This document shows, one piece after another, positions 271 to 40,155 of a DNA stretch of 64,000 bases. Position 1 is the first letter of the stretch. Each line of letters starts with the position of its first letter. A model generated the notes under the pieces. It worked only from the letters and a program-made list of their open reading frames with translations, ran no database searches and was not told where the DNA came from. The stretch spans positions 31,930,001 through 31,994,000 of the forward strand of contig OZ287758.1 of assembly GCA_965649765.1 (NCBI GenBank), given 5' to 3'. Both the position numbers and the translations under genes were made by a program. Origin of the DNA: Bispira polyomma. Taxonomy: Eukaryota.

Positions 271-660
271 TTAGTTGCTTCTATTCTCCGAACAGTCATA
301 GACATTTGACGAGCAAATGATGTCCATATCATGTTTATAAGAGGGTAAAAAGATGAATTCACAAGAGAAAGTTCCATGCTCAGAGTTATTTACATGTGCC
401 TCCTGACAGATGACTCCTGATTGTCTGTCAATTACTTCTATCAGATCTTTTACAAAACCATCAAAGTTAGTGCCTGCACGCAAATAGACAGTAATTAGGA
501 TAAGGTCTGCCAGGAAAGCTCCTGTTGCTATTTCAAGCTGATAAACGTCTTTGGCATTAGACAGGTATTCACTACACATACCAATATGTACTCATTTGTC
601 TCAAGAAAGTCTCACTGTAGCCTGTTGTTCTCAGGATTTTTAGATCTTTTAAAGTCGTAT
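271..660 (-). pseudogene. Accessory orfC copy of the env-LTR family
   Basis: YLSNAKDVYQLEIATGAFLADLILITVYLRAGTNFDGFVKDLIE aligns with ORF 20445-20771. The start is degraded; an acceptor ttccacag|AT lies at 661. Confidence 0.75.
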
Positions 661-1019
661 CTGTGGAAATAATTACACTGGTATTTCCAATGGTATTTTT
701 TTTTCTGAAGTGACTGCAGTAAGATAAGGAGTCTGGTGTAACAACAAATGTGTTTCCTTATATACAGTGGGATATTTGTATTCTTTTACCATATGAATTC
801 GGATTCACTTCATTCTTATAACAACATTTTCTCTTGAGAACATGAATATTACTTTTGTTTATTAAGATAATTTGAACATAGACAACATTGGAAAATGTTT
901 CTTTCAGTTGCATTAGGGAAACTATTATTAAATGGGAAAAGTTTGAAAGAGAAGCATTTTAATTCAAATAACATAAACACCAACAACAGTTATACATAAT
1001 TTCTGGCCTTAGTCTATTG

Positions 1020-1400
1020 AGTGGAGTCATCTAAAACTTTAATCCTAATCCATAGAAATAGTCAACCATTTTTTTTTATCCCACCTCTGTTATATATTCA
1101 CCCACAGTTTCTCCTGGCTTCAGCGTTCTATTAATGACAGTCATTTGTCTCTGCAGTTGAGTATGGGTGGCAGTGATATATTTATCTCTAAAGGCTGCTT
1201 CAAATACTGCATAATCATCTCTGGTTTGTTGTAGCAACAAGTGTAACCATTTTTTGCACTACCAGTGAAAAGAAGGCCCAGCAGATTGCATATAACATTT
1301 CTCTACCATCTATCTGCTATTTCTGGGTGAAGATCGTTAAAAGATACAGGCTTAAAAGGACGGGACTAATGGATTGTGTACTTGTAATATATTTAGAACT
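1020..1400 (-). pseudogene. gag: Degenerate Gypsy gag (capsid) remnant
   Basis: Manual translation FKPVSFNDLHPEIADRW*...FEAAFRDKYI...LKPGETVGEYITEV matches the element 1 gag (LRPASFKGLASEDADRW...AFRQKYI...ETVEAYITDV). Confidence 0.75.
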
Positions 1401-1621
1401 TGATCCATGTTGTTCTGTACTGGTCCTGTAATTTGTGTGCATTTTCTGGTTCTTCAGGGATAACATTTAGTGGAAATTTTTTTCATTCTCGATGCTTGCA
1501 GATTTTTCAAAAACCAATCAGTTCTACAAACAATTTATAACATCTCTACTGGGTAAAAGTCTAGATTTACACCTACCAGTCTTTCATCAAGTAATATCTT
1601 TGAATTCCAGGTTAACAGAAC

Positions 1622-4600
1622 TGTTACGCTCATTTTTCCTTGGTGATAACAAAGTTCCAGGGTTTGGATCTTTTCTCTTTGTAGGACATAGTTCAGTTTT
1701 AATTAGTGTAGGTCTTTTAGAGTTTCATGGCAACACAGGTTTCCAAAGTAAAAAAACCTCGCAAAATGATATCCATTCAGTTGATTTTACAAATGTCATT
1801 TTAATCTTGATTTGCTATCTCATGCTACATACTTTAATGACTTACCAAAACATTAAATACTATCATAAACAACATTATTCCATTATGTGAAAACTCTCAA
1901 AATAAATACAAGTTTTACCTTTACTAAAATATTCTAAGTTCTAAGACTAATGTAGAGTTTACAAGAATTTCTATTTCATATTAGAATTTTCCAAGTCCCA
2001 AGCTGGTAAAGAGAATTGTTTTTTAAATTTTAACCATTTACGCTGGACTTCTTAACTTCTCTGCCTTGACACCCTATGTGTCAGGGTTTTTATAGACAAG
2101 GATTATTCAGCCCTTGACAAAGGAAAACATACATAGTTCGATACTGTCCAACAGAACACATGACTTAAAGTCCTCACTGGATGGGGTCAGAACAATGCAC
2201 ATGCACTAATTGGCTTTTTTCCAATACTTACGTAAAAACATAGATTATTGGACACTGTCCAACAGACCACATGACATAAAGTCCTCACTGGACGGAGTCC
2301 ATAACAACACGCATGTACTATTTGGAATTTTTGTAATACTTTTGTTTTGATCAACTTAGGCATTACTTAATCTTAGGTTAAGATAATCACATTTTAGACA
2401 GCTGTACACAATATCCAAAGACACCAAAAAGTAACATTTTGACCGCATGTAGTGGCTGAATCCTTCATACCTAAATTATTCGGGTGATTTGAGACGCTGT
2501 GGGTCCAGTAACACAGTATTTCCAGATATAGCCGCATAACTGGCTGTTAATGCGAACACACGGCAGTTTGTACACCTACTTTAACCGAATGAGATTGTGG
2601 AGCTTGGAGTCGGACCTGCACTAGACATAGTTGTCACGGTTCCTGTTTGAGATAAAGATGTTTGCAAAACGTTGTTTGTCAACGTGGAAGTATCTGAATA
2701 CTAAAAAATAACACCTTAGATTGCACTTCCCGGCTTACATACACATGTAAAGATAAGTGTTCCTACATTCGTTTAACATACAATGTTAATAGTTTGATAC
2801 TCACAATATGTACAATATACAATAATATGGCGAACTTATATATTGAGGTAATCTTAATTAGGTTTACCTCTTAACAGAAATCTGACTTAAGGTCACCATC
2901 AATTTACGAAAACATTTAAGTCAAGAGAGTGACTTAAGGTCACCGTAACTTGTTATACTGAATTATTCTTTTTAATAATGTTTAATCAAGGTCACCATAA
3001 ATAAGTGATTAGTTAGAAAAACTAACTAAACATAGTGACTTAAGGCCACCTTAATATTGACATTTACTTTAACTCAATAAAATCAACTTTTTATAATTGA
3101 TACAAAGATTGTTCAAAAAAGAAATGTTCCTAACCAAAATATGTATATATATAGTTAAACATTAAGTGTAACCAGTTTAAAATCTTAGTTTAATTCTGTA
3201 TTATTTTCCTGCTGATAAGAAACTGCTTTACTAGTGTGTGCACAGTCTGAGGTGGGTATGTGCTGGATGTGATTATATATCGATTAGCACAACAATTAGA
3301 TGGTAGAAGTCGTCCAGCCACCGAGAAATCCAGCTTCCGGTCATGTCAATCTTGATTTGCTATCCCATGCTATATACTTTAATGACTTATCAAAACATTA
3401 AACACTATAATAAACAACATTATTCCGTTGTGTGTAAACTCTCAAAATAAATACAAGTTTTACTCTTTTCCAAAATGTTCTAAGTTCCAAGACAAATGTA
3501 GGATTTACAAGAATTTTCCATAACTTTATAAAGAGAATTGTTTTTAAACTTTTAATCATCTATGTTGGACTTCTCAACTTCGCTGCCCTTCTTCCCTGAC
3601 TCCCTTTGTGTCGGGGTTTTTATAGGCAAGGATTACTCGGCCTTTTGGCAAAGAAAAACATACGCAGTTGGACACTGTCCAACTGAACACATACAAAGTC
3701 CCCACTGGACAGAGTTCAGAACAACGCACATCTACTAATTGGAGTTTTTCCAATACCTATGTTAAGACCAACTTGGGCATTACTTAATGTCAGGTTTTAG
3801 ATGATCAATCTTTGGACACTGTCCAAGTCTCTTGCTGTAGCATGTGTGCCGCGCAATATCCCTAGCTTATTAGGGGGCAGTTTGCCAGCTCCGCATATTA
3901 AGCGGTGGACTGACAATGCTGGCTAATGGTCAAAACTGCACTGCAGTAGAGCTAACACAGACTAATTGATACATCTGATGTGAGGTGCTTCTTTAACAGT
4001 GTTTTGATACATGATTTACCAGAGAATATATTATTAAAACTAGCTATTATTAAACTGATACATTATTTAAAACATGGGTGGATATATACAGATAATTCTA
4101 TATTTCTCACGTTAACTTAACTTGCAAAGGGTGAGGTTTATATAATTGTAATTTCAGCTGGCTTTTTACTGATTTAATCAGTAAACCAAACATTAACTAA
4201 ATTCAGTTTATTTCATTAAAAATATGCAGAGTAATTGCAAATCAGTCTTTATATAGTACTAGATTTGCTCTGCCTTAACACACACATTGAGGACTAATAT
4301 TTGTAAGATTTGTCTCTAAATTAGGCTCAGCAATCTGGCATATTGCCTTGTGAGAATTTTGTCTACTCAGTGCTGACTAATGCTGGCCAACTCACATGAT
4401 TCTGTAGTCTTATTGACTTGGCTGCAGTTCAATATTTTGTGATGTACACAGCTCTCTAATAAGGAAAGTATTAGTGTTTGTAGCCAAAAGGGGGACAACA
4501 GCAGATACCTCTATGGCGAGTTGCCAAAAGGAAATAAAAGAATTGCTAAAAGTGATCAATTGCAATTTCTCTGTTTTAGCCACATGGATAACATAATTAT

Positions 4601-4665
4601 ACCCATCATTTTAATTACATCTTGTTAATTAACTACAGAAAAGTAGAGGAATTTGTGTCATAACA
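1622..4665 (-). repeat. Interrupted/composite 3' LTR of element 1
   Basis: 1622-1975 matches 11720-12040 and ~4097-4665 matches 12035-12592. The intervening ~2.1 kb holds related LTR pieces (1795-2395 resembles 3345-3830) and a decayed orfD piece (2400-2700). Confidence 0.7.
2715..3215. repeat. ~500-bp module with clustered AAGGTCA motifs, copy 1
   Basis: Colinear with 27947-28445. Confidence 0.8.
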
Positions 4666-5067: not shown

Positions 5068-5511
5068 TTATAATATTATGAAGACTGTACAAGCTTGTGA
5101 ACTATAAGATAAGTTTTGATCATATGTACTAGAAGAGTCACAGCATGTTGTAATGAACATACCACAATTGTTCCTGTACATTTTGGACAGCTGTACATAA
5201 TATCCAAGGACACCAAAAAGTAACATTTTACTCGCATGTAGTCGCTGAACCTTATTCCCAGATATAGCCGCATAACTGGTTGTTGAGGCAAACATATATC
5301 AGCTTTTACACTCACTTAAACTGAACGAGATCGTGGATAAAACAACGGAGCTTGAAGTTTGACCTGCACCATATACAGGTGTCTCGGTTCCTGGTGGTAC
5401 AACAGCGTTGGTCAACAAGGAAGTATGCGAATACAAATTCACAAACAGTGGATCCATGTTGTCTGAAGCTACTGGCAGAACATCCTAGAATGCAAGAGGA
5501 TGTGTAGACAT
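5068..5511 (-). pseudogene. Accessory orfD, element 1
   Basis: Frameshifted ORFs 5068-5295 and 5076-5315; SLDIMYSCPKCTG...YLIVHKL aligns with the C-terminus of ORF 19949-20401. Confidence 0.7.
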
Positions 5512-5569
5512 TGTGTACTAGAGACTCACTGAAGCTTAGAGACAGATGTGGGTGCAGTTGGCAATAAGC

Positions 5570-5791
5570 TAGAGCTCTTGCTCTATGTCATGAAGAAAAT
5601 CGTGGGTATCCACTCCAACTTTTAAAGAAACTTTAATGAGGGTATGATTTCCATAAGCAACACCAGTGATAACATGTGTCTAAAATATGCCTTCACAATC
5701 TTATAAATATTCCAAGACGTCGCCACCATCAACTGAAAGGATTATTTGGTCACTGCCAAAAACTTGAATGTCCAAAATGAGGATTGTTCAT
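5570..5791 (-). pseudogene. Accessory orfC, element 1
   Basis: Nucleotide copy of ORF 13792-14058 with a deletion and stops. Confidence 0.7.
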
Positions 5792-6242
5792 TTGGTTTGT
5801 TTCCCTGACTAATCTGAATAAGAATGAAATATAAAAAAAACTTTCTCTTAAGGTTATGAAATAAATGTTTATGTAGTAAAATGGGAAATATTTGTTCCTA
5901 TTTGAAAAACAATACGAATAATTTGCCTATTTAGTGACATATACTGTAAAAACTGTGCTAAAATCGGAGTAGATTAAATGTCAAAAAAGTGTGGATTCCA
6001 ATTCTCGATTGGATCACACCAAGACGGATTATTGGGACGGTTGCACGGGAAATCCCTTCTTAAATGGCCATGTTTAATAATAGAGAGAGTTATATACGCA
6101 TCATAATCAGTCTAGGAGTCATCAGACTGTCTTTAATATTTGGTTAAATTACGGAGGTGATATAGCTCCTTGAAGGCATGCCTAAATTGTTTTAAAGTCT
6201 TGGAAAAAGATTCTGTAAGTTCTAATAGTGCGAAGTCATCCC

Positions 6243-6802
6243 TTAGGGGAAGGTCAAAGGTGTCCACCTTATAGTTTTTTGTGTATGCTCATCTAAAGAA
6301 CAAATCAAATCTATATCATAGAATCGCATGTCCCGGTTATTATTGAAATAATAGTATAGCGCATACAAGACGTCAGCCCATTTCTTCGGGGAAATAGGTT
6401 TGAAAGTTTTCAAAATATCTATGTCGTAAATATGATTTCGCAATTGTAGATATACACAGGCTCTGATCACGTCAGCTGTTTCAAAATCACCAGAGATTGG
6501 ATTTCCCAAAATACAGCTTAAAGCACATGTCAAAGATTCTACATTCTCTAAAATGCATGACATCCGACAATGTACTCCACTTTAATCGGAAAGTAGAAGA
6601 TTTTTCAAACTTTTTTTCAAAGCTCCCTAGTTTTTGAAAAATCTGGACAAGCAAAGAAACTTGTAGAAAGATGTCCAATTTGATTAGAATCTCTTGAAAC
6701 CCTCCGACAGTAAAGGTGATACATTCCATGATGTCCAGCAAATTCCAAAGGTAGCCAACAATAAAAAGAAATGTCAAAACTTACACTTGCAAAAAAAAAC
6801 AA
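6243..6802 (-). pseudogene. Accessory orfA, element 1 (helical protein of unknown function)
   Basis: DVIRACVYLQ...KKWADVLYALYYYF aligns with NIIRAAIYMQ...SQWASIAYILSYHY of ORF 29323-29916. Confidence 0.65.
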
Positions 6803-7324
6803 AGAAATTTATCAACAAAATCACTAAAAAACAAAAAAAAAATTCTAATTGGTGTACAAGTATTTCTGATAATATCCCTTAGTTGAGAGAGCTTTTTGAG
6901 TATTTCCAAATCCAACTACAGTAGCAAAAAACAGTGTCAACACTTATGAAAGAGTGAGGGATGGGGGTAGGTTGTGGCCAGTATTTACACACTGTGCTCA
7001 CTCAAATTAATCAGTCCCATTGTACTGGAGAAGTAGTTGGTGAGTGAATAAAAGGGTGTAAAGTGGGGCAGGCTTTTAACAAAAAAGGGTGCCGCTAGAA
7101 CAATATATAGTGTACAGTAGAAGTACGTTCTAGGATGAGATTAAGGTATTAACAGATTAAAGGATATGGTTCATAATGGATGCACTTCCCGTAATGAGAG
7201 AAAAGCATAAGGGATTAAGGGGGTGGCACTCAGGAAAGGTTTCACAGAGTCTCCATTTGGGGCTCGGAGTGCCTTTGTCCATGGTCTAATTGCCTTATTT
7301 GTTGCATTGGAATATATTGAGAAC

Positions 7325-9640
7325 TTACTTTACTATTTCTATTTTATGAAACAAGATATCTTGCACATCTCCATCAGTCACCACCGACACCCTGACTACA
7401 AACGCTTTATCTTTAATGTTTAAATACTTTAGAGCAGATTTTGGGCTCAGCCAAAGTTTTGAAGGTAAATAAATGATATTTCCTGACTCAGATAAGGTGA
7501 TCTTAAGAAAATCCCAGTTAAATTTGATCTGTGGAAATAATAGTTCTCTCAAAACTGCAAAAGAGAGCTCTCTCTGGTGTTTCTGGAGTTTTGTGAACAG
7601 AAAGGGATTTTTTTGGAAGAAACATTTACACAGTTTCAGTAGCAACAAAATAAATTGCATCATTATTACAAAGGATAGTAAACCCATAAGAGCATAAAGT
7701 AAATACTCTATCTCTGTCCCAAGTTTTAAGTTTAAGTCATGTGGATCCCTAGGTGCTAATGTGGCAAGAGCCACAAACTCGGCATCCCTTTGGATAAAGT
7801 TTCTCCTTAGGGTGGCCTGTGACTTGTACAGCTTAAATGTAACCACAAACTCAATTGTAACTACCATCAGTGTGACATAGATAGAAATTACTAACCAAAG
7901 CGAGTTAACAATGGCGATATCGGCCAAAAGTTTGACTAAAATAAGCATCCCACGGGGTGGCATAGAGGGTTTCATTATTTCTGATTGCCTTAAAAATTTT
8001 CTTTAAATCCAGAACACTTTCGTCCTGATTTACCAACATAAGCTAATGTCCAAACTTAACTCTAGTGAGATTAATTTCTGGAAGGCTAAATTGACCACTG
8101 CGTAATTTGTCAGTAAATCTACTTCTGTGGCAACTAGTAACTCCACATTGCCATATAATTTGGAACTTGTTCGTAGTCTGAAAATCCAGGGTAAGAGCAA
8201 CTTTCTGTGCTTGGGGGAATGTAAAAGCTACTACCTTTCAAGCTACATGAATATTTATGGATAATGACACAATTTGTACAGCCCTTAAAAATTCTTGGAG
8301 GCATGGATTCACATGTTTCGACCCAATTTCTTTCTGAAGTACCAATAAGTACTTTCCCATCTTGCAAATCTGTGAAGTGAGCTTCTTTAGGATCTGGATT
8401 TGGATGTAAACTAATTTTACATAAATTATATACTTTGTCAAGGTCATTGCTATATAAATCACTGGCATAGGTCGGTTGACTGCTCTCGAATATATTTTTA
8501 ATGTACTCTGACACTGTTTTAAATAAGATCCTGGACAAGACTGGAATGTAACCTGATCAATTTCAGTGAAAAATCTAATTTCTGTGGTCACTCCTAAATA
8601 AGCAGGCAGTTCATTAATAGATGTGAATGAATTATTCCTATGCCCTGCTACAACTGGAATGCTTTCTATCTTTTATACACTAAAAGCAAATTAGTACTAG
8701 ATATTGGTATATCTAGTTTAATGTACAGAATATTCTGTGTTCTGGCAAAACTTATTCTGTTAGACTGATAAAATGTATTTGGATTTGAATGTAATAATTT
8801 AAACGAAGGATGTTAAGTCTCAGATAGTAAGAGATGTATCCAAGAATAGTTTTTATCCGAATGGGAGAAATTACATGCATTGGCAAATAACCTTTTAGTG
8901 TTAAAGTGGTATAGCTTTCTATAATTTTGTCCATTTCTGATGTCATAAGCAACATAGAGGACACTTCTCTTGCATTAATTGAATGCATCAGTGTGACTAT
9001 TTCTTAAGAACTTCTATTCTGGCTTCCATCTCATTTAAAGTTTCAGTCCATGAGTGTTGTAATTTGTCCATTTCATGAATGCTTTCAATAATTAAGAGTT
9101 TGTTTTGTGTACAGCATCAGCTATACGCTTAAAATTCTCATTACTTTCCATTTCCAGGGATGATAATCAACTGTTAAACTTCATGAATCCTTTGAATGAT
9201 TCTGGGTTAGTTACCAAAGCGACGATATGAGCTTTGAGTATATTCATGTCTTTTGCAGTTGCTATCCCAAACAAATTCTTCGATATAGTTCCTAAAAAAT
9301 CTAGTGGGGCTCTTCTTTTCCTCTGTCGAGGTTTCATATTATCATTTAACTTCTGTACTCTGCCAGCCGGTATTAATCCGTTTATAATACTTCGTTTCTC
9401 ATTTAATTCCTTCTTCAACAATGCTCTGATTGTAATTTAGAGCTGTAAGATCTGGTAATGGAACTACAATTGTATGCCCTTAATACGAAATAGAGTTATC
9501 CAACACTGCAACTCCTCTAAGCACAGTTCTTTCACCACCACTTGTGGAAGTCCACTTTCAACAGAATATCTTCCAAGAATCAAGTTCAGGCCAAGGAAGA
9601 AGGTGGCCAGCCTACTCCATTGTGAGACCTTCATCTTCAT
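7325..9640 (-). pseudogene. env: env, class I fusion glycoprotein of the baculovirus-F/errantivirus type, frameshifted
   Basis: Signal-like N-terminus; furin site RKRR followed by APLDFLGTISKNLFGIATAKD; Cys-rich segment; two TM segments; colinear with env at 22115-24766. Confidence 0.88.
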
Positions 9641-9715
9641 CTTGGTTACTTTAATGTTCAATTTTAGCTAAGCTTTGGTTGGCACCTGGATCTTCTGAGT
9701 TGCATGTCTGTTTCT

Positions 9716-10060
9716 TCAGCTTGGAGCATCTGTGCTTACTTCACACACAGATTTTTCATCAGGTTGATTTTTGTTAAGACTAAAATCAGCAACGAGTGTT
9801 GAGTTTTGGTCATCAATATTTAGGTCATCACTTTCTGCAGCTTTCTGTTTATAGCTGTCTGTAATATCTGCAATGTTTGACTCGTCTCTAACTTGTGGTT
9901 CATCTACATCAACCAATTGTTGATCTTCTTGTACTAAACCATCATGTTCTTCTGATGCATCATCTTCTCCCAGTATTGCTTTGAGTTCTTCGTCTATGGG
10001 TGGTACAACAGTCCAATCGACATAAGGTCTGAGACGGTCAACATGAAGTTGCGTTTTCCA
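9716..10060 (-). pseudogene. pol: Integrase C-terminal tail with acidic extension
   Basis: LHVDRLRPYV...PPIDEEL matches VHVNRLKPYV...PPIDEEL in ORF 25012-25680. Confidence 0.8.
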
Positions 10061-10300
10061 ATCAAAAATAAAAATGACAATTGCAAACTTAAATGTAGTG
10101 GAGCACACAGTTAATGTTTCTTTATCACAAGGCTTCAGCTTATCTTTTAAATGAGGAAATTGTTAGTTTAGGTCCTGCCAGTGAAATAGTAGATCCAGAA
10201 TCAAAGGGTGCAAATATTTTCATAAATGACAAACCTTTTTGTTTTATCATATTCTGCATTATACACGCATCTGTCTTGCCCCTCTTGCCACTCTGACTGC
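10060..10300 (-). pseudogene. pol: Retropepsin protease remnant
   Basis: Minus strand reads MKIFAPFDSGSTISL, an aspartic protease DSG motif. Confidence 0.7.
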
Positions 10301-10329
10301 GGGCAGTTTCCGTCATTACATTCGTCTGG

Positions 10330-11296
10330 TCTGCGCCACAGCCCCATTCGGTGACGCATGCTGATAGTTTAAAGGCCCTCTTGGGGTGTTATTCCATTGA
10401 TTAAAATTTCTACTTTTCAGCTGTGGGCAATGATTCTTCATGTGACCTCTCCTATTGTACCTGTAGCATGTAACATGTGCCAGCTGCGGCTTTATGACCA
10501 GATTTTTGACATCGTTGGCTTTAAAGCTGAAAATTTTCCTTCATAGCTGGTGTTTGGAATTGTGGTGCTCTCGTCTGAAACGGCTGGCTCCATAGATTAA
10601 TCTTCATAAACTGGACACTCTCTAGGTTATTGATAGCTTTAGCTAAATATCCCATACTTTTGTTGTAGGTATCCTGCATCAAATTAACTTTCAGAACCAC
10701 TGTCTTTGGGTTTTAAATTCTTAATACATTCTGCTAGTTTAGCTTTTGTCTTAGTAGCCTTCTGAGGATTATAAACCTAGTTTCGGCATCACCTTTTTGT
10801 AGCTGGCTGCATCTTTGTCTGACATCAGTTATATAGGCCTCCACTGTTTCTGCCGGTCCTTAACTCTATCAAACAAACCTTGCTCCTTCAACCAATTAAG
10901 ATTATTTGCGTCAATATATTTCTGCCTGAATGCCTCTAGCAGTTAGTTCCAATTTCCCCTCAGTGCTTCTAGCAAACTATTGTACCAAATTTCTGCTGAT
11001 TGCTCTACCATCAGGCGAAATATTTGGGGTTTTCTCCTGTCATTCATGTTACAATAATCTGAATAACTCAAAAATATTTTTATCCAACGGTCAGCATCTT
11101 CACTAGCCAATCCTTTAAATGATGCAGGTCTTAGAGATGACTGTTCGGCTTGATTACCTCTTTGCTGCAATGCTTGTTGTATTTTTTCCCGGTTGACTTC
11201 ATGAGCAGCACTCTGATGATCATTTTGTTGGATCAGCCCCTGTACCTGATTTCTTAGCTGATCATTATTTCCAGCTAAAACATCCAAATTTGCCAT
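10330..11296 (-). pseudogene. gag: gag of element 1
   Basis: ORF 10943-11296 is capsid-like, continues through stops to ETVEAYITDV and a decayed CCHC knuckle CYRYNRRGHMKNHC (~10425-10470). Confidence 0.82.
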
Positions 11297-11700
11297 ATCT
11301 GACCTTAGCAGGTAATATTTCTTAAAGGTTGATCTCTTCTTGGGAAGTTTTTCTGACTTCTTTGATGCATCCAGCTTGCTCCACTAAGTTTTGATTACCA
11401 TGCTGTTGGAATTATTCAATATCGACAGCATAGGCAGGTGGAAGATCTTTGTGGTGCCTTTTTAAATGTTTCATGAGCATTTTTCTACTTGCGTGTTTGT
11501 ACTTACGAAAACAACAGCCATGGCTCCAAGCGGTGGTGCTTTTGTCATTGTCAAAAAAAGTTAATGCGTGTGACCCTTCTCTGGTTAAGGTTAAAAGTTG
11601 TTTATCAGCACTTGTATGTGCTGGATGACACTGCTCTTGACATGTTTTTCCTTGAAATTACCTATGTGTCCTGGAAACCACCTTATTGTCCTTGAGATTA

Positions 11701-11716: not shown

Positions 11717-11719
11717 AAT

Positions 11720-13748: not shown

Positions 13749-13791
13749 TGTGTACTAGAGACTCAGTGAAGCTTGGAGACAGATGTGGGTG

Positions 13792-14700: not shown

Positions 14701-14750
14701 TTCCATAACACATACACATTGTTTTAAAGTCTTGGAAAAAGATTCTGTAA

Positions 14751-28774: not shown

Positions 28775-29293
28775 TTAAAGTGGATTTTTTTTTTGTTTTA
28801 ACGTGGAAATTGTTTTTCTATCAATCGAACAATGGTAGAAGGCTGGATTGCCAACTGAGCTTATTATAATATTGGGAGGTCGAGTTTGGGGCATCCAGAA
28901 ATCCTTAGGGCCAAAGCTTGGAGGAGTAAGATGACTAAACTTCCCAGGAAAAACAAACATGGTTCGGGTCAATTGTACTGTATCTATGGCATTATAGAAG
29001 CTGTTATTCCAGCCCAGACCGATTTCAAAATCGGCAGATACTGGTGGACTGGAATGTATTGAATCCCAATCCTCTGGGGGACCAAGCGGGGTGGTTGACC
29101 AACAAGGTTCACAATACAGTGACCGGTTGTAACAGCACAGCTTTACTGTTATACTGGCATCCCTTATTGTGGGTGTCAGGAGGTACTCATTCCCACAAGA
29201 AAGACATCGGTTTCGATAACACCTGTGACATATTCCTAATTTTGCGATTATCAAAATATTGTTCCATAAATTGCCATAATGTGACATTGGCAA
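28775..29293 (-). CDS. Accessory orfB (Cys-rich)
   Basis: CHRC, CLSCGNEY, CC, YCEPCW; frameshifted duplicate at ~31015-31530. Confidence 0.62.
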   Translation of the reverse strand: MPMSHYGNLWNNILIIAKLGICHRCYRNRCLSCGNEYLLTPTIRDASITVKLCCYNRSLYCEPCWSTTPLGPPEDWDSIHSSPPVSADFEIGLGWNNSFYNAIDTVQLTRTMFVFPGKFSHLTPPSFGPKDFWMPQTRPPNIIISSVGNPAFYHCSIDRKTISTLKQKKNPL

Positions 29294-29322
29294 GAATTAG
29301 GTCCTCCTCGTCATCAGCACTA

Positions 29323-29916
29323 TCACGTTTGTATCTGAAGTCGACACATCCCACCCCCATGAGATCCGTGGTTGGGACAATTCATAAAGATATACGTAGA
29401 GCTTGTTAAAATATTTGTTAGGATCCATGGCATGACATCACTGACTCGGTGGTATAGGTCCGCCTGATAGTGGTAGGACAAGATGTAGGCAATACTTGCC
29501 CATTGGGACCAGGTAATTTTTCCCACCCAAGCGGTCAAATGATAAAAAGTTTCCTTTGTGGTGAACTGCATATAAATGGCAGCCCTTATGATATTAACCA
29601 TGTCAGGTTTCTGAGTTCTAGGTTTTTGCCTAGAAATAAGATTAAACACAGCAATCAAAGATGTAGCTGTAAAACGTAACATATCTTTGTAGGAGTTTTT
29701 TCTACCCAAACGCTGTGCAGGGTGTTCAAAGGTTACTATGTTATCATGATTCCCTGGTTGATCCAGTAGTTTCCCTAACCGAAACCTTTTGACCGCCAAA
29801 TCTGAATAAAAAAGCAAGTCCACAAGAGGAAAATACCTTGTAAGCCCCCCAGTTGGCAATCTCAACTTAAGGTCAACAGATTCAAGATCTGGTGATGGAA
29901 TTAATTCCTGAAACAT
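29323..29916 (-). CDS. Accessory orfA
   Basis: Open 197-aa ORF homologous to 6243-6563; partial duplicate at ~31590-31830; upstream TATAAAAG at ~30190. Confidence 0.68.
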   Translation of the reverse strand: MFQELIPSPDLESVDLKLRLPTGGLTRYFPLVDLLFYSDLAVKRFRLGKLLDQPGNHDNIVTFEHPAQRLGRKNSYKDMLRFTATSLIAVFNLISRQKPRTQKPDMVNIIRAAIYMQFTTKETFYHLTAWVGKITWSQWASIAYILSYHYQADLYHRVSDVMPWILTNILTSSTYIFMNCPNHGSHGGGMCRLQIQT

Positions 29917-30482
29917 TGTTAGAATTGATACAAATTAAGTGTTGGTCAAAAGAATAAATTTTACAAGTATTTTTATTTTAATTTAATCTAGAAAAACTGC
30001 GAACTAAGTTTACACAAGTATAGTTATAATAAAAAAATGTGAAGTTTCTTCATCAAACAAGTGTGATATCCCAAAACTGAATAGTGAACTAATCTAAGAC
30101 TTTATTCTTCATAAAAATTTATTAAACAGCCGAATGGTGCCTTGGCAAAAAGAATCCCCACAAGTGGATCTGGGATAACTAGCTTCCTTTTATATACTTA
30201 TTACAGACCTTAGGGTTTTAGACAACGGAAGAAAAGAATGCAACCATGTGAAATCATATTAAGTCCCTAAATAGTTTGTTTAGAAGTATCTGTGAAAGAG
30301 ACGCTACAGCTGGTGTCATCCTGCTAATTGCATTTGTGTGGAATTATTTCATTAAGACACAAGGAATTATCATATTGAGTCCCAAATTAGTTTATTAGGA
30401 TGCATCTGTGAAAGAGTTGCTACAGCTGGTCTCATCCTGCCATTTTCATTTGTGTGGAATTATTTTATTCAGACACATATAA

Positions 30483-30944
30483 TTAACTGTAACAGTGAAC
30501 TCGCATGACAGTAGTTGCAAGAGCATTGCACAGAGCACACTGTGGAGAAGGCACTGGGCCAACAATACGCTGGCTGTTGTTAGAGAATAAATCACAAAAA
30601 TACGGGTGGTGCCGCGGATTTGTTGAATGTGAGATGCTGGTGTTGCTGGGCCGTCTTGGTTGGCTCAAGACACTTGTGGAGCCAGATGCCCATATTGGGT
30701 ATAGGTCTTTTAATTCTTTTAATTCTGTCATAAAGTGGCCATTATCAGTTCCTGAAGTCACAAAAACTCGAAGTAATGGTTTTGTTCCATATTGGGCCCC
30801 ACTAATCAGGTGTAATTCTTAAACAGAATGATGTCCATCAATAAACTCGTGACAATATCCCAGGTCAACATTTTGTGCTTCTGTGTACTGTCTGTCGGAC
30901 ATAGTGTCTATAACTTGTATTATTACTGTCTTAGTTTCAGGCAT
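30483..30944 (-). pseudogene. Accessory orfC, with an orfD-like CxxC tail
   Basis: MPETKTVIIQVI...DLGYCHEF...V*ELHLISGAQYG..LLRVFVTSG...FMTELKE aligns with orfC; one in-frame stop; acceptor at 30969. Confidence 0.6.
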
Positions 30945-32317
30945 TTTGTATTTTGTTGGTTCTGTTATCTGGTTGCATAATACACAAACAATATTATTGT
31001 ATTGGTTTATCTTTTAAACTGGAGATTTCTTTTTTCTTTTAAAATGAAGATTGTTTTTCTATCAATTGAACAATGATAAACGGCGGGATTGCCGACTCGC
31101 TTATTATAATATTGGAAGGTCGATTTCAAAAATGTGGGGCATCCAGAAATCCATAGGGTCAAAGCTTGGAGGAGTTAGATCACTAAACTGCCCAGGAAAA
31201 ACAAACATTGTTTGGGTCAATTGTATTGGCATTATAGAAGCTGTTATCCCAGCCCAGACCGATGTCAAAATCGGCAGATACCGGTGAAAAAGAATGTATT
31301 GAATCCCAATCCTCTGGGGGATCAAGCGGGGTGCTTGACCAACAAGTTTCACAATACAGTGGCCTGTTGTAACAGCATAGCTGTGCTCCCATTTGGCATC
31401 CGTTACTGTGGGTGTCTGGAGGTACTCATCCTCATAAGAAGGACATCGTATTCAGTAACACCTGGGACATGTTCCTAATTTTTCGGTTATCAGAATATTG
31501 ACCTATAAATTATCTGCGAAATTTTCATAATGTGACTTTTGCTTTCTGTTCGTCATCAGAAGGGCCAAAGTTGAGCTGATCTGAAGACAACACAACCCAT
31601 CCCCATGAAATCCGTGGTAAAGACAACTCGTAATTATCTACTTGAAACTGTTTATGACCCACTGTATGATATTATATGCGCGGTGCTATGGGTCCTCTGC
31701 ATAGTGGTAGGACAGGATGTAGGCAATATTTTCCTATTGAGACCTGGTAACTCTGCCTACCCAAGCAGTCAAATTTAAAAATGCTATCCCTGTTGTAAAA
31801 TGCATATAAATGGCAGCCCTTAAACTGTCCATAGATTTTGTTGACTGACCAATTGCTTTGTCCTAAGTCTCCTGCATCAGATTAACCTTATCTGGGGAAA
31901 AGGTTTTAGACTTCAGATTTTCTATACTCTAAGCCAATCATGCCTTAGTTTCCAACTCATCTAGGGTTTGTGGCTGTTGACCTATGACAAACATACACAT
32001 GATTATCTTTCTACTACATTTACCATTATTGTTGCAAGGTTATTCCCAGTGGTCGCCTCGACCCCTAACTCATTCGTTTAACCCAATATTTTGCTGGGAT
32101 TTTTTACCTCAGAGAAGTATGAAGACAAGAAGAGAGAAATTTGATTACTGTCACATTATTTATTAGTTAACAGTTTTATCTACTCCACTGACTGCAATCA
32201 AGCTTCTTTAAACTTTAACTAGCTGCATCTTCAGCCTCCAATTCAACTAACTGTGTGTCTCTGGGCTAAACCTTATATAGGTTCAATAGCATTTTTAGGA
32301 ATCTGAAGGTATATATA

Positions 32318-33743
32318 TGTTACAGTAAATATGTGAAATCAGTAAATACGCGTAATCCCTAAAAATTTCAGTAAATACACGTACTTACTGGTTTTGGGCC
32401 TGCATTATTTCACAAGTTTACTGGTGGTCATTTCAGTAAACACGTGTAATGTGAAAATTTCATTCAAGGGTTTTATTGACATTTAAAAGATAAATATCAG
32501 TGTTTGGTGAATTCATCAGTCTTTCTCATGAATATGATATACATGTAGTATTTGGTGGTTTGTGTTTAAAGTTATTAAAGTATCTGGATTTAGTTAGGTC
32601 GCTTCAAAGCATGCTACATCACATGCATTTTGGATTTACATTATTGTCTGTTTACACAAGTGTGGTCAAAATATTGGTTTACACATTTTAAAAACAAATT
32701 GAACACTCTTATTTGTTTTACATTTAAAATTGAATAATTATAAAACTGTGAAAATTAAATATAATTTTAAATTACTATTTTATTAAATAAAGACTAAATG
32801 TTATAAGGTACTAGTTTGTAAAACTTTCTTTTGATATTATTATAAGCAGTTAACTGTGCTTCTATAGCATCCAAATAACATCAAAGACTCTATTACATGT
32901 CTGTACAGGCCACACTAGCTTTGAAGGTAATATGATAATTAGATGAAAAGAACCCTTTATAAACCCTTCTTTTGATGTACCTAAAACTGTAAAATGTGGT
33001 TTCTGTGTAAGGTAAATCTCATTGAATACTTACAATTGCCTATATTGGATGCTATATTCAAGCAAGATCTATACATTTCAGCAAACTAAAAAAAACTTTC
33101 TTTCAAAAGATTAATATTTTCAAATGATTGAAAAAGATAAAAAATGCTGACCAAAATAAGAGTAGACATATTTACTTACTATTACCAACCACTTATACAT
33201 GTACATATTTTCTGTAATAATGTAACTAATGAATTGGTGTCCTTTACTACATTAAATATACCACATGACATGTAATATATGAAAAAATGTCTTTTATATG
33301 AACAAATCTATTTCAAAAGTCATTTTCAGGTGTAAATATATATTTTAAAGACTACTTGGAACATATTGGTGTAATAAATTGGATGATATGTATAACATAC
33401 ATTTAGGATAGACAACATAGTATATATGTACATGTAATGTGTCTAAATAAATTTACCTAAATAAAGATGGACTCTTTAATAACTTGTAAAATCACCACTA
33501 CCACATAATTATACATCATATGGATGAAAAATACTTAATGTGGCAAGTTAATCATAACTTGAAGAATAATAAGACAATTCAGTAAATACGTGAACTTACT
33601 GGACCCAAAAACCAGTAAGTACGCGTATTTACTGAAATCTTTAGGGATTAAGCGTATTTACTGATTTGGTCAGTAAATACGCGTATTTACTGAAAATTTC
33701 AGTAAATACGCGTATTTACTGATTTCACATATTTACTGTAACA
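32318..33743. mobile_element. Non-autonomous TIR DNA element inserted in the LTR
   Basis: TIR TGTTACAGTAAATATGTGAAATCAGTAAATACGCGTA at both ends; flanked by (TA)n; absent from the element 2 LTRs. Confidence 0.88.
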
Positions 33744-34468
33744 TATATATATGAAATTGAGAATGTGATGTGATATGAGATTTAAGGAATTTTATAACTC
33801 ACTTAACACCAATGGAATGCATTTACGTTATGTAAAAGATAATGGAATGCATGGAATTTTATGAAGGAATGAATGTATGCATGGAATGTTATGTAGAAAT
33901 GCAAGTGCAACTGTTAAGGAATTTTGGCAATAACAATTGCCTCTGGCCAAATTAATTGTGTCCACACAATTACTTAAAGTTTGGATAAAGGTGTAAGTAT
34001 GGCCGAGGACCATGCCCTCACTCTTAGTGAAAAACAGATACTTACACCTTTATGGCTAAATGGATACACCTCTTGAAAAGGAACACAAATATATTATGCA
34101 CACACATTTATAAGTATATAGCAGAAAACTCCTGTATTAATACAACATACAGATGATTGTAACTCACTAACCTTTCTATTACATTTACCAGTAAACTTCA
34201 GATATATAATTAAACAAAAGCTTATATAATATAATGTAAACGTTATCCATTATATGTTATTATAACTACGGTGTAAAACCTGTACCAACATTGTATACTG
34301 AATTAAATTGTACCAGTCTCCAAACTATTAAATCTGATAAGTTAAGTCTGATAAGTTCAGTTTGTGAAACACTGATGCTGTTTGGGACAATTTTATTTAC
34401 AAATTCCAGATTTGGAAATATGTACAGCTGTATAGTAAATTTTTGATTTAAAAATGCCAAAGCCAAAA

Positions 34469-35350
34469 TCAAAAAGAGTGGGGGATGATTGCAGCAAAAG
34501 TTGTTGGTATAATTGAAGCTGCATGAGAAGTAGATTCTAAATATGTCCAAATAGCATGAGATTTCCAGCATCCATGTTTTTGGATGTTTTGCAATCTTAC
34601 ATTATTATTGAAGGCCAGGGATGCTCCTGACCTTCTAAAGCAGTGAAAAGAATGATCATTTGTTGGAATGTTATTTTGTTGTAATATCTTTTTCAAAATT
34701 GCTCTTAATTTTGATTCTGTAATGCACTTTCCATTTGTTTGTGGGTCTGCTAACAATGGTGCAGTACCAGGCAATGGATATTTTTGGAAAAGTATCTTTG
34801 CAGTTGTTACTGGACATAACCATGGATTTTTCAAAGTTGGTAACTGAATAACATCTGGTTGTGTCCTTATTTGGTTGGTTTTTAACCATTTCAATACAAG
34901 ATGAATTCCTGGTGGTGAAAACACCACATCTGACCTAGTTATATGACGTGTATGATCAAACTGATTTTTTTATTGAAGGTGTCAGGTTTGATATTCTCAA
35001 AAATAAAAAAAATGCAAACAAAAATGCTATTCTATATAGTTGTGTGTAATTTATATAAATCAAACACTCCTTTTGGCCTTGGCTTATATGTGGAGGTCAA
35101 CATTATAGCCTTTTGATATGATGAGATTCTTGCATCATACAATTGCTCATCAGCTATGTGATTATGTTTAGCAAAAGACCTTATTGCTGCCAAGTAGTTA
35201 TTCACTACTTTGTAAGAAAGGTTATTTTGTTGCAAGAACTCCAAAAAGTCCAAAATGGCTGCCAAACCAAAAGTGTTTTGTAAGTTATGGTATATGCTAA
35301 ATGCCAAATATAATCTGATCTGACTGTTATATTGTCTAACTGTTCTTGGT
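34469..35350 (-). pseudogene. Tyrosine recombinase (SAM-like N-terminus plus catalytic domain)
   Basis: KTNQ, LCPV, HCFRRSGASLA...HGCWKSHAIWTY. Confidence 0.9.
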
Positions 35351-35430
35351 CTGTGTGCTGTCTTGATTCTTTTTATTGCTGTACTAGGTAGTTGTCTTGT
35401 ACTGTCTGTTGTATCTGCAATATATATTTT

Positions 35431-37654
35431 CTAAATGTCATTGTCAAGTTTAAACAATTGTATGGAAACGTCAAACATGTTAAATTTCTTACGAATTATT
35501 GTTTTTACTTCAACTATATATGTCCCTAAGTCATGCCATCTTGACAAAGTGTCAGCTATTATATTCTTTTTCCCTGCTATGTGTTGTGTGAATTTCGATG
35601 TTGTGCTCTGCACATATTAGCCATAACGGTCTCAGGCAAGTACTTAAATATGGGTCTCTTGTGTTGGATGATCGAACCACTGATACGACTGCTGAATCAT
35701 CCGACTGGATTCTTATCGTTCCGTTCTGCCATTTTTTTTGCCCATAATTTTAGAGCAATTATGACACTTACCATTTCAAAATGTACAATTTTTTTTTTTG
35801 TGTATTTTTTTTCTTTCATTGACATATACATTAGCACAATTCACAAAAACACAGTTACAATACAATAAAGAACACACTGTTACAATACAATAAAGACAAA
35901 AATCCAAACAAAACAAGATACCAAAAACCCTCGCTGTACCGTTGAATCTCATGGCAAACTTTATGAACCAATTTAAGTCTTTTCTAAAGTTTTCATCCAA
36001 TACTATTGTATTTTTACTTGTAGAATTTCGTGATACTTGTAACATTCTATTCATGAAAATTCTTGATGGTTTAATACATCTATGGATATATAAAAGTTTT
36101 CCTAACAAGGATTGGTACTTGTTTTTCTTTACCTTTTTTAAATCCTTAAAAGATATACACGTTTCATGAATACTTTGTAATTTCTCATTATCAATACTTG
36201 GCGTTTTCTCGTTAATATCTATAATTATACCCATACATGTTACTCTTTTACTTGGTTCTACTAATTTTGACTTATTAATAGGTAGACCAAGTTGGTTCAA
36301 AAGTTCAATCAGAAATTCATATGCTAAGGTTGCCTTAACTTTTTCTTGTACTAATATGAAATCATCGATGTAGTTAAATACCTTGAAATTATGTTGACGC
36401 ATTATATGCGTTATTGCGTCCGATACGCGCATAAAGACTGACGTGCCGTGTGTTAACCCGAACGTCCAAGTTAAATCTACAAAATATTTATTCTTCCATT
36501 TATATCCTAATTTAAGACTGTCTACCGGATCTATACGTAAGTTTCAAAACGCATGCGCAATATCGATTTTTGCTAACATAGCTTCATCACCTATAGTCTG
36601 TATTTCTTGTACTATTTGGTCTATTGTCGGTAATTTCAATTCAAACTCTACCTTGTCATAACTATCTTTTACTGTACAGTTGTTTACTGAAAACCCTAAT
36701 GGATGAGATAAGTTTAAAATTAAGCGTCTCTGGTCAGTGTCTTTTGGTCTTGTCAAAAGTGGTGAACAGTAAAAATATTCTGGAATCTTATTATTTGTTA
36801 TTTCTATAATAGTCCCTTTTGTCTGTTTTTTTTTTTTAAATATTTATCAATATAATCTGGATACTGATTTGCAGAAAAATGATTGTCAGTATGTTTGTTA
36901 TCTAATCTTTGTCGGTCATACAAGGAAATAGAAAATCCATATTCCAGGTATTGTAACAATAATTCGTCCTCATAATTCCACAAGTATTTTTTCCAATTTT
37001 CTATGTTCAGTCCACATTTAATCGGTATTCTTGCTGCCTTATAATTTTCCATTCCTGTTTAATTACTTTATATACATATAGCAGTTTGTCAACAGTATTT
37101 ATGTCCACTTGTTCTTTGTCTGGTCCTGTAAAGGAGAAATTAATTTTTCCTGTACTTATAAATCCATACTTCCTACAGTCTATGTCTTTTGTGTCCTTAT
37201 TTCTATTGTCATTGTCTTCTACATATTCATCCAGTCTATCCTTATCATACAATAGTAGTGTCGATATTAGTGATGAAGCATTATCTATCAGTTTATCTGT
37301 GTATTCATCTACTATTCTTGTGTGTTTCTGTTTTGTCTGTATGACTGTTCTATCTGTTTCTGTTTTTTGATTCTGTTTGTTAATTTTCCTTGTATTTTTG
37401 TTCTTTTCGTTCTGTATTATTGTCTTGTTTTTGATTATTCTCTCAAGCTCTTTGTCTGTTTGTGAGCATTGTGATGCAATCACAATGTCTCCTGACTCCT
37501 GGCTGCGAATGTGTTGTTTGCTGTATTTGTCGACATCAGCGCCTGTGAGTAGAAAAGCCGGTTCAACGTCCAGTTCGTTCCATCGAGCCAGGTCAATCTC
37601 CCCTCTTCCACGTCGTGCATGTTTGTCGCGTAGGACCCTCTCGCCACCTGTCAC
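35431..37654 (-). pseudogene. DIRS-type RT/RNase H
   Basis: RRLILNLSHP, AKIDIAHAF, YIDDF, HIAGKKNIIADTLSRW; many frameshifts. Confidence 0.9.
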
Positions 37655-38615
37655 GATATATTACTTGCATCCCTTAACGTGTCTCCCAGCTGTTTTAACA
37701 TGGCCCTTGAAATTGCATTATTTTTTACTTCCAAAATGTTCTGAATTTGTCCTGACGTGAATTGGGCAATACTAAGTTCATCATAAGCTATTTTTTTTTT
37801 ACTAATACCTGTCAAACACCCCTCATTCGGCCAACGAAAAATTGGGTCGGCTGTACATATGTCTGCTGTATTAAATCTACCAGATTTTCTTTTCATGAGG
37901 GACTTACCCTGGAGGAGTTCGCTTGCTGGTAGTTGTTCATATTGCTGTAGTCGTGCACTCACTTCATTCTGTAGTAATGCCGAATGACGAAGTACATCAG
38001 CTGATGGTACAATGTCCTGTCCTTCTAACGCAGCTGGAAGATTGTATCGCCCCTGTGTCTGCGAAATTCCTCCTGGTTGTATCGGCATTATCTCGGCTTC
38101 CACTGTTGGCTGTGGTAACGAGAATTCGGATAAACGCAGTTGTGACCCTGTGGTAGGTCTCGTTTGCTGTAACCCTCCCTGTGGTGGTTGCCACTCGTGT
38201 AAAACTGGTTGTAATACTGTAGCCAGTCTTGTTTTCTGTGTATGAGCGGACGTGCTTGGTAAAGCATATGAAGTGGTATTAGGTACACTAGCAACTGAGG
38301 AAACTGTTACCTTTTCTCTTTTTTTTTTAACCCGTCCACGTCTTGTTGTAATCTGTTGAACGACTTCAGCATGGTTTCCATCATTCCCTGCTGTCGTAAA
38401 CACGTTTCTTTGATTTCGTCAGACGAAGATTTACCTTCTGGCGACTTCGATACTGAAGCACCGACGTCCTCTTCATATTCATCACTCACATAACTAGTAT
38501 CCAGTATTACTTCTCGAGTACATCGAGCCCCCACTGGACTTGTGTGTCGTATTTTACACCTTGAACACGAGACTGCCTGTAGTAGTCGTGAAGTTTTCTT
38601 TATTGCTTTTCCCAT
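37651..38615 (-). pseudogene. gag-like ORF of the YR element
   Basis: N-terminal CSRCKIRHTSPVGARC finger; IAYDELSIAQFTSG segment; position 5' of RT. Confidence 0.7.
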
Positions 38616-39312
38616 TATAAATACCCTCCAATAGTATGACACACACACATATAAACTAAAAACAATAACTAAAAACGTAAAATGTCGTCTTCATATATAA
38701 AATCATATAAAATATATTTTTTCTTTCCAAAATCCAATATGGCGCCTAAAATTTTTAATTTTTCCTTGTTTCTACTTTGGCTACCAAAGTAAATGTAAAT
38801 GCCATATCAGACCCCAGCTACTGCCCTTAGCCTATTTCACCCTAACGACCACACATAAATATACTGTCGTTAGTCGCTAAACTACAGGGGTTTACTGTAG
38901 AACCCTGAGGTGCCATGCCACTAATGTGTGCAGTGACAATCACACTTTGAAGATAAATACACACAAAACAAAAGGTTATAATGTCAAATATATACCAACA
39001 CACATCAATATGCCAAAAAGTGTCTTTTTAAAATATTTATTGTAAAATTACAACATCTATTAATACACACATTTGATATAACATGACAATAATTTGAAAT
39101 ACACTGTTGTAGACATTGCTGCTGATTTATAGCTTATATTTCAACATACATAGTGCACATATAATATAGTAGTACATATAAAATTATGTAATAATAATAC
39201 AATTATTATAATGCAACATATAAAATACATGTAAAACATTTATGTATCCCCTTTTTTAGTGCCGAACCAACTATACTCGTAAACACTTGAACTTATTTAG
39301 TGTTTCTGCTGT

Positions 39313-39609
39313 CTACTTACTGGGATCCTCCAGGACTCCATCTCTCAGCACGCTGAGAAGCATATCTAATTTGCGTTTAATCACCTCTAGGTAGTTGCAA
39401 AAACACTTGCGTTCGAGGTAGACCTCTACTGACACCAGCCTACCTGGGCACCTACGGTAGTGGCTGGGGCTCCTTGGAGTGCTCTGCAGGACAGTCCTGC
39501 ACCAAAGGCAGGTCAAATCCTCCAGTACTGGGTTTCCTAACCTGGCTGGCACAGTGAATTGGACCCTACAGTTGTGCGTCCCAACGGTGAAACATCTGGG
39601 GCATTCCAT
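39313..39609 (-). CDS. Accessory orfE, element 4
   Basis: Open 98-aa homolog of 19638-19928; ATG directly after ttttgtag. Confidence 0.7.
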   Translation of the reverse strand: MECPRCFTVGTHNCRVQFTVPARLGNPVLEDLTCLWCRTVLQSTPRSPSHYRRCPGRLVSVEVYLERKCFCNYLEVIKRKLDMLLSVLRDGVLEDPSK

Positions 39610-39625
39610 CTACAAAACACATCAC

Positions 39626-39930
39626 TCATCTGGTCAACTGATGCATCTTTAAGTATTCATGAAGAACTTTCTGGATTGTTGCAGCAGAATACTGACAGCT
39701 TGTAAATACCAGAACACCACTGCGGCAGAAAGTCGGTGACATGTCCATAAGTATCTTGTCATAGAGCTTGCCTCTCATGAAAGCTCTACAACTTTTTATT
39801 CCAAAGGAACCTGGCCTAGCCAGCCCATAAGGGTCAAACACTCCACTTTTGTTGTAGATGGCCACTAGCTTTGGTTCTTCACTTGAAGCCACAGGGCTGT
39901 GTTGTGGTAGTCTTCCTATCGCCGAGGTGG
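39626..39930 (-). pseudogene. Accessory orfD, element 4 (N-terminus deleted)
   Basis: Close homolog of the 19949-20401 C-terminus. Confidence 0.72.
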
Positions 39931-39939
39931 GCTGATGTC

Positions 39940-40155
39940 AAGTACATCTAGCAGGTCTTTCAAAAAACCAGCAAAGTTTGAACCTGCACGTAAATAGGCA
40001 GAAACTAAAGTTAGGTCTCCTAGGCAATCTCCTGTTACTACTTCAAGGCGATAAGCTTCCTCGGTATCGGACAGGTATGCAGGACACAGACTTCAGAGTT
40101 GTGTTGAGAAATTCTTTCTGAAGCCTATTAAGCTGATGATTGTTTTTTACGCCAT
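39940..40155 (-). pseudogene. Accessory orfC, element 4
   Basis: Nucleotide homolog of ~20550-20771; acceptor at 40158. Confidence 0.72.

Follow-up and report, generated by a model that had tools for sequence, protein, structure and literature searches.

orfC, a selected and unclassified small protein gene in env-bearing Ty3/gypsy elements of Bispira polyomma

Complex retroviruses carry small accessory genes, such as vif, vpr, vpu and nef in lentiviruses and tas and bet in spumaviruses. Env-carrying gypsy elements are usually drawn as gag-pol-env, and a survey that covered 1512 such elements (Chary and Hayashi, eLife 2026, PMC13524379), which describes 'ancient errantiviruses' with an F-type env and a chromodomain in cnidarians, molluscs and annelids, annotated only those three genes; accessory genes are not mentioned in its main text and seven supplements, nor is splicing in its main text. 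Extra open reading frames (ORFs) are nonetheless on record: long terminal repeat (LTR) elements are reported to capture occasional ORFs downstream of env (PMC6431247), CERV of the element Cer1 is described as an RNA export factor made from spliced mRNA (PMC10309623), and the ORF3s of bdelloid LTR elements are described as encoding a DEDDy exonuclease and a GDSL esterase (PMC5408684). Here we report on orfC, a small gene behind env in LTR elements of Bispira polyomma, which we studied in a 64,000-nt stretch (the window; contig OZ287758.1, positions 31,930,001-31,994,000) and through searches of the genome (1.035 Gb, 75 contigs), whose further loci carry L numbers. We find that orfC is a real, selected and unclassified small protein gene.

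The first 41 kb of the window are a heap of fragments from env-carrying LTR elements, and all env-element protein matches in the window lie on the minus strand. An earlier, sequence-only reading of the window had placed six copies of the orfC domain there; all six were found where it had put them, on the minus strand, and the three peptides that it quoted are present in the sequence. Only two copies are uninterrupted, namely a family B copy at 13792-14019, which encodes 75 aa and has a further in-frame ATG at 14058, and the family A copy at 20445-20771, which encodes 108 aa comprising a 75-aa core and an acidic tail that ends in a motif resembling a SUMO-interacting motif (SIM). The other four have stops or a disrupted 5' end: an A-type copy (A3) at 271-660 is disrupted at its 5' end and open at 274-591, the second family B copy at 5569-5793 has two in-frame stops and a 5' deletion, the family D copy at 30483-30944 has one stop, and another A-type copy (A2) at 39931-40155 has two stops and an acceptor-like site 2 nt before its ATG. 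Profile matches delimit the six copies at 418-591, 5572-5793, 13789-14019, 20529-20771, 30711-30938 and 39937-40149. The domain had been put at about 90 aa, which is too long for the folded core of about 75 aa and leaves the remainder as a variable tail. Similarly, the copy called at 30483-30944 is orfC only over its core (30711-30944), the rest being part of the neighbouring gene orfD that a deletion has fused to it in frame. An N-terminal stub of family D, noted near 28705, occupies 28640-28705 on the minus strand; its profile score is not significant (E 0.34-2.4), but it is a homologue by its agreement with the beginning of the 30944 copy, in 12 of its first 17 residues and in the DNA upstream.

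The subfamilies recognize one another well beyond chance. When each subfamily was left out in turn and the rest realigned, all 16 held-out sequences scored 15.2-63.2 bits against the resulting profiles, and none of 1000 shuffles reached any of these scores; reversed sequences scored at most 5.5 bits. The cross-subfamily relationship proposed from the letters alone therefore survives the shuffle test in every case. When the window was searched in six frames, the copies of a subfamily were still recovered by models from which that subfamily had been left out (E 8.7e-15 to 1.5e-3). Genome-wide, searches with four single copies found at least 30 distinct orfC loci, a lower bound, in addition to the stub (nine in family A, six in B, seven in C, two in D and six in E). 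Within subfamilies, the ratio of nonsynonymous to synonymous substitution rates (dN/dS) was 0.10-0.47 in 13 of 16 pairs, which share members, whereas shifted-frame controls gave 0.66-1.82 in six pairs. Across subfamilies, 26-43% of residues are retained although synonymous sites have reached saturation, and start and stop codons are in register among young copies.

Sequence searches left orfC without a family. There was no match in Pfam (best E 0.015), PHROGs (best 0.017) or PDB sequences (best 0.052), and none in the ESM Atlas, phage records or IMG/VR. Word-indexed homologue searches returned nothing with seven rows and, with 39 rows, only three proteins that were already known; one metagenome match (L140) was rejected as a chance 18-residue match inside an unrelated ORF. 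A 16-row profile run against 1.84 billion representatives did find 15 relatives outside this genome at E<=1e-3, and all 15 clusters are ENA records (one with a member from Logan), many of them located on contigs that range in size from hundreds of kb into the Mb. In a 24-row tree, P0001 groups with family A (98/93), P0005/6 with family C (92/89) and nine others with families B and E (81/95). Given this grouping, the subfamilies are probably older than this genome.

To describe the fold we rely on an AlphaFold2 model built from 39 rows, which has a predicted local distance difference test score (pLDDT) of 94.3 and a predicted template-modelling score (pTM) of 0.81; a first model from 16 rows reached a pLDDT of 66, and its fold matches were meaningless and were discarded. 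The predicted order is beta-beta-alpha-beta-beta-alpha, with strands at residues 5-10 and 15-20, a helix at 24-32, strands at 37-43 and 52-58 and a second helix at 64-74. This confident model, the dN/dS constraint and the lack of a family match all agree with the earlier proposal of an unclassified, compact alpha/beta domain. A Foldseek search of PDB and BFVD returned no match with E<=1e-3, and VIA-align gave no Z>=8 (best 6.1), which does not imply that the fold is novel. Residues 1-60 superpose on a protein L variant (Z 6.1, root-mean-square deviation 2.5, 57 residues aligned, template-modelling (TM) score 0.46), and the whole model matches a ParC subdomain (Z 5.0-5.5) and YML108W (Z 4.9). 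The closest known folds are the beta-grasp of the protein L/G type and the split beta-alpha-beta arrangement of YML108W, the ParC subdomain and an S6 circular permutant, all at Z values below 8, in VIA-align's range for common arrangements. orfC has an additional C-terminal helix, and ubiquitin itself reaches a TM score of only 0.21-0.34; the diglycine of ubiquitin-like modifiers is likewise absent, with a GG terminus in none of 22 full-length orfC ends. Residues 12-75 resemble HMA, AsnC and S6 permutants of the ferredoxin/RRM-like type (Z 3.6-4.8), and Pfam ZT_dimer gave E 0.015 in two of 16 members.

Conservation concentrates on a few positions of this model. Invariant glycines had been noted in the sequence-only reading, and this is true of G45, present in all 21 non-redundant rows, but not of G25 (14 of 21) or G49 (17 of 21). 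D23, E39 and H41 each occur in 18 of the 21 rows, and the A-type proteins have the characters of positions 39 and 41 swapped (39 is R or Q, 41 is E). Strands 1 and 4 have consecutive hydrophobic positions, acidic residues equal or outnumber basic ones (D+E >= K+R) in 20 of 21 cores, and the alignment contains no signal or membrane segment. The central strands have hydrophobic residues on either face around D23, E39, H41 and K55, from which we infer a protein-binding surface; orfC would accordingly be a two-layer alpha/beta domain whose binding face is conserved. A SIM consists of a [VIL]-x-[VIL]-[VIL] core flanked by acidic residues within a disordered tail. SIM-like tails occur in eight of 19 orfC proteins where 3.3 are expected, in about five independent lineages.

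Full-length copies elsewhere in the genome show the layout of the host element as LTR, primer-binding site (PBS), zinc-finger ORF, gag, pol, env, [orfB], orfC, orfD, [orfE] and LTR, with orfB ahead of orfC-orfD in families B and D and orfE behind them in families A and C. The pol ORFs of L018, L019 and L031 have Pfam matches to reverse transcriptase (RT), RNase H, integrase and Chromo (PF00385 E 2.2e-9, 6.7e-9), and in the window an integrase match lies at 25700-26305 and a Baculo_F match in env at 23258-24502 (E 4.1e-10), with a weaker one in the family B env (E 0.0022). LTR pairs are 92.7-99.6% identical in seven elements elsewhere and 97.2% identical in the family A element of the window. 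Families A, B and E have one PBS in common, which is complementary to the tRNA-Ala end given in supplement 1 of PMC13524379. The host element is a Ty3/gypsy errantivirus with a chromodomain C-terminal to integrase and an F-type env; judged on domain matches, it falls outside Retroviridae, since its env is F-type and its pol combines Ty3/gypsy-type domains with a chromodomain.

Besides gag, pol and env, these elements thus encode a leader zinc-finger ORF, orfC, orfD, and orfB and/or orfE. The leader ORF, a C2H2 zinc-finger frame of about 80 aa between PBS and gag, is conserved in families A, B, C and E (L018:5700-5939 on the minus strand, L068:5098-5340, L031:5322-5543, L027:3241-3477) and weak in a D-like locus; its Pfam matches run from E 1.4e-6 to 2.7e-3, with one of four above the curated cut-off, and it is a candidate regulator of the element. 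Purifying selection on orfD was found in three of five pairs by dN/dS, and no outside homologues of orfD were found. The orfD N-terminus carries a short SPT(E/D)L motif ahead of a Ser/Thr/Pro linker in families A, E and D (L020 from 4523, L069 from 4550, L071 from 4812). A by-eye idea that orfC and orfD are paralogues was not supported (HHalign probability 0.1-0.2%, cross-profile scores within those of shuffles). The family A orfE has no Pfam match, that of family C (L028:4816-5637) has a RING-like pattern of Cys and His at its end, and a Cys-rich finger is present in orfB (L013:172-1140). Behind its membrane segments, env contains a long region of beta-rich pattern that is conserved across families (22115-23254 and 7325-8002 in the window, minus strand).

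The distribution of orfC follows one clade of these elements. In a tree of 31 integrase rows from loci of this genome, families A, B, C and E form a single clade of 15 rows (100/99) that holds all orfC-bearing rows; family D, for which no pol was in hand, was left out. From 67 env matches in the genome we examined 38 further env loci, 28 outside the clade and ten inside. One of the 38 (L127) carries orfC and none of the 28 does, so that the claim of orfC in every subfamily applies to all env-element subfamilies of the window (A, B and D), and also to C and E elsewhere, but stops at the border of the clade. In six of the ten in-clade loci a deletion extends over orfC, and another three loci are truncated or decayed. 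The six copies that lost orfC by deletion belong to families A and E (L100, L101, L103, L115, L102 and L105), and the cassette is missing from several young copies whose env is intact. Two copies on separate contigs, L100 and L101, which are 99.2% identical, have a common deletion of orfC, orfD and orfE and keep an open 889-aa env, so the cassette is not needed in cis, and orfC would act in trans or be dispensable in cis. Neither these losses nor the absence outside the clade fit the description of orfC as the most consistently retained accessory gene, and within the window orfD is found at eight places and orfC at seven. A sister clade (L106, L108, L111, L113 and L125) has other post-env ORFs and no orfC. 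Post-env ORFs of the sister lineages (L106:2795-4601 on the minus strand, L107-L111, L114, L122 and L125:5135-6897) include an acidic one of 168 aa, a low-complexity one of 196 aa and others of 192-219 aa whose C-terminal domain is weakly orfD-like, and two of these ORFs have acceptor-like sites abutting the ATG. In families F and G an orfD-like domain has weak support, its score being reached by 2, 9, 4 and 98 of 1000 shuffles.

Several features around the orfC start codon resemble an intron. The orfC ATG is preceded by TTTTTGCATAG|AT in L017, L021 and L023, and L017, L020 and L021 have the donor AAG|GTATGT at a distance of 432-533 nt upstream. A GT-AG stretch ending 2 nt before the ATG is precisely absent from two of six family A copies compared, L025 and the window copy starting at 20771, where the joint of the absent intron (533 nt in L017) lies at 20772-20790 on the minus strand. 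Contigs from runs X1 and X2, which come from one sample, skip the same 533 nt, with ends that read CT..AC on the plus strand; runs X1-X3, contigs of unknown kind from two samples, cover genes, spacers and LTRs alike and are thus uninformative on expression. Over orfC, run X3 has hardly any cover. Of 13 family A deletions, only the orfC-adjacent one can be read as GT..AG within its microhomology, and among simulated random deletions such a reading was available in 0.6%, or 3e-5 with strong sites; the deletions that removed the cassette from L100/L101, L102 and L103 lack GT-AG ends. Five of 16 gene starts have an acceptor-like site 0-3 nt ahead of them, compared with 17 of 349 background ATGs (p 8e-4, at a distance threshold chosen after looking). 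Such sites also precede env, the orfC of A2, B, D and E, the orfE of A and two ORFs of family F, and a GT directly follows the PBS in A, B and E. The simplest reading of the intron-less copies is that a spliced RNA was reverse-transcribed, and on these genomic signatures we consider it probable that orfC is expressed from spliced RNA.

Taken together, these observations suggest a working model in which orfC, a selected accessory gene of this clade, would be translated from a spliced subgenomic RNA whose acceptor lies at or near the start codon, and its product, small and acidic, may be a trans-acting adaptor without enzymatic activity that binds proteins and so dampens silencing or restriction by the host, putatively together with orfD and the Cys-rich neighbours. 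The adaptor role is suggested by the acidic character of orfC, by the absence of a membrane segment and of any match to an enzyme, by its loss from some copies in the way of trans-acting accessory genes, and by its Cys-rich neighbours. SIM-like tails in some lineages make the SUMO/chromatin silencing machinery a first guess for the host target, and since SUMO is reported to be required for piRNA (PIWI-interacting RNA)-guided silencing in Drosophila (bioRxiv 10.1101/533091), these tails are a lead rather than a result. As a whole we advance this counter-defence model tentatively and give it slightly less than an even chance.

A number of points weigh against it. At the level of the gene, three short, decayed orfC pairs have dN/dS of 0.74-0.96, and for the 15 outside relatives a location behind env is an assumption. 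As for splicing, no acceptor-like site lies near the family C orfC ATG, only two of the five acceptor-adjacent starts are those of orfC while two belong to the sister family F, and the intron-less joint could have arisen by an RT template switch at 7 nt of imperfect microhomology; its occurrence in both the window copy and L025 is probably one event seen twice. Helix 2 of the model could cover the second face of the sheet, in which case that face would not be exposed. Finally, the SIM-like tails are weak evidence, since rows are non-independent and families B, C and E have none, and the RING assignment of the orfE/orfB pattern was made by eye, with no significant Pfam or PDB match.

These points leave room for other functions. 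An element with several splice acceptors must export its unspliced RNA, and orfC, alone or with orfD, could be a regulator of element RNA akin to Rev, Tat or CERV, acting in RNA export or transactivation; CERV is described as a precedent for this in Cer1 (PMC10309623), a trans-acting factor would fit the cassette-less copies, and part of the model is ferredoxin/RRM-like (Z up to 4.8). We nevertheless consider it unlikely, as the orfC core is acidic and has no basic RNA-binding stretch, sister and outer env lineages do without orfC, and the leader C2H2 ORF, present in A, B, C, E and probably D, is a better candidate for such a regulator. The same absence from related F-env lineages speaks against orfC as a structural or assembly helper of the particle that would attach to Gag or to Env's long cytoplasmic domain, as do the lack of a signal or membrane segment and the copies with an intact env and no orfC, although these could be complemented in trans. 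This helper role, which would suit a small, stably folded product encoded directly behind env and an orfC tree that roughly follows the integrase tree (B with E in both), we regard as distinctly unlikely.

The polar residues D23, E39 and H41 are conserved to a degree that is unusual for so diverged a family and might belong to a small metal-dependent enzyme, a nuclease or hydrolase. Their exchange at positions 39 and 41 in A-type proteins resembles a salt-bridge swap and not a catalytic site, however, and no enzyme fold was matched, which makes an enzyme very doubtful. That orfC copies are non-coding 3' untranslated sequence, similar by chance or descent, might be suspected from the four broken copies among the six in the window, but the residues kept across saturated synonymous sites, the confident model and the register of starts and stops all speak against it; the held-out shuffle test and dN/dS refute it, and we give it next to no credence.

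The window also holds further remnants of these elements, all on the minus strand. Family B is represented by an orfD fragment (2386-2700), frameshifted orfD copies (5079-5517 and 13244-13754), a broken orfB encoding a helical domain and a Cys-rich finger (5980-6780), a broken F-type env (7245-9527), the pol C-terminus with gag remnants (9530-11338), a remnant of the leader C2H2 zinc-finger ORF (11415-11618), an LTR fragment (11718-12036) and the 3' part of another orfB (14325-14790); an orfD C-terminal fragment lies at 3196-3369 (E 4.7e-7). The family A element runs from its 5' LTR (26495-27015) through the 5' remnant of the leader zinc-finger ORF (26331-26441), the integrase part of pol (24808-26334; gag and RT are deleted), env (22115-24649), orfC, orfD (19949-20401; a Ser/Thr/Pro linker and a conserved Cys-containing domain of about 90 aa) and a Cys/His-rich orfE (19536-19937) to its 3' LTR (18030-18534). 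Family D has left an orfD fragment (28451-28612) and two orfB-like regions, one with helical and Cys-rich parts (28775-29934) and one broken (31006-31925), and the A2 copy has orfE and orfD remnants (39322-39928). Other elements share the window: a DIRS/Ngaro-type element (34469-38690, minus strand) with gag-like ORFs, RT at 35776-36543 and a tyrosine recombinase at 34469-35430, flanked by short inverted and tandem repeats at 32310-33751; transposase-like ORFs containing DUF1280 (46185-49524, minus strand, E 6.5e-18); and a large DNA element (58358-64000) with a C2H2 ORF (59218-59802) and, by eye, long polymerase-B-like ORFs (60515-64000), an ORF for an LRRNT-containing membrane protein on the opposite strand (58358-58918) and palindromes at 56139-56286 and 59079-59206.

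Three loci gather 3' cassettes of several subfamilies, each in one orientation and with little pol: positions 1-41000 of the window, C9:7.752-7.812 Mb and C4:25.488-25.518 Mb. The window holds 2165 bp of pol against about 6900 bp of orfB/D/E/X, the C9 locus 702 bp of pol and the C4 locus none. In arrangement these loci look like single-strand piRNA clusters, but some of their copies are local duplicates. Pushed furthest, the data could mean that an invertebrate gypsy lineage independently arrived at the whole design of a complex retrovirus. Its counter-defence cassette would be spliced, orfC would antagonize the SUMO pathway through a beta-grasp-like fold and together with orfD and RING-like neighbours, and the host would respond by gathering exactly these cassettes in single-orientation, piRNA-cluster-like loci, of which this window would be one; we regard this extension as improbable.

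Extra ORFs in LTR elements are known, and it is the orfC family and the complex-retrovirus-like layout that appear to be undescribed; we found no paper describing the orfC cassette in a search that covered few subscription papers and had Repbase entries outside its range, so prior annotation is possible. As a small, confidently modelled protein without a known family, orfC is tractable for structure and interaction work, and the cassette offers concrete candidates for how retroelements evade piRNA or chromatin silencing, a question for which few proteins are known. The ancient errantiviruses, as described in PMC13524379, share with these elements the LTR-gag-pol-env(F) order, the chromodomain after integrase, the tRNA-Ala type of PBS and several young copies per family; they are annotated there with gag, pol and env only, whereas here two or three extra genes follow env and one precedes gag. 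CERV of Cer1 and the bdelloid ORF3s are likewise extra genes of invertebrate Ty3/gypsy elements, but according to their descriptions they are single ORFs, while orfC has no Pfam match and is one of several genes in a cassette that lies downstream of an intact env. Searches of Pfam, PDB, BFVD and VIA-align revealed no sequence or fold similarity of orfC to known accessory proteins, and pol of the Ty3/gypsy type with a chromodomain and an F-type env set these elements apart from complex retroviruses. What they share with complex retroviruses, as far as genomic sequence alone can tell, is several small accessory genes around env that apparently have their own splice acceptors and are dispensable in cis. 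With three to four additional genes, probably with splice acceptors of their own, the orfC clade would be an invertebrate counterpart of the complex retroviruses.

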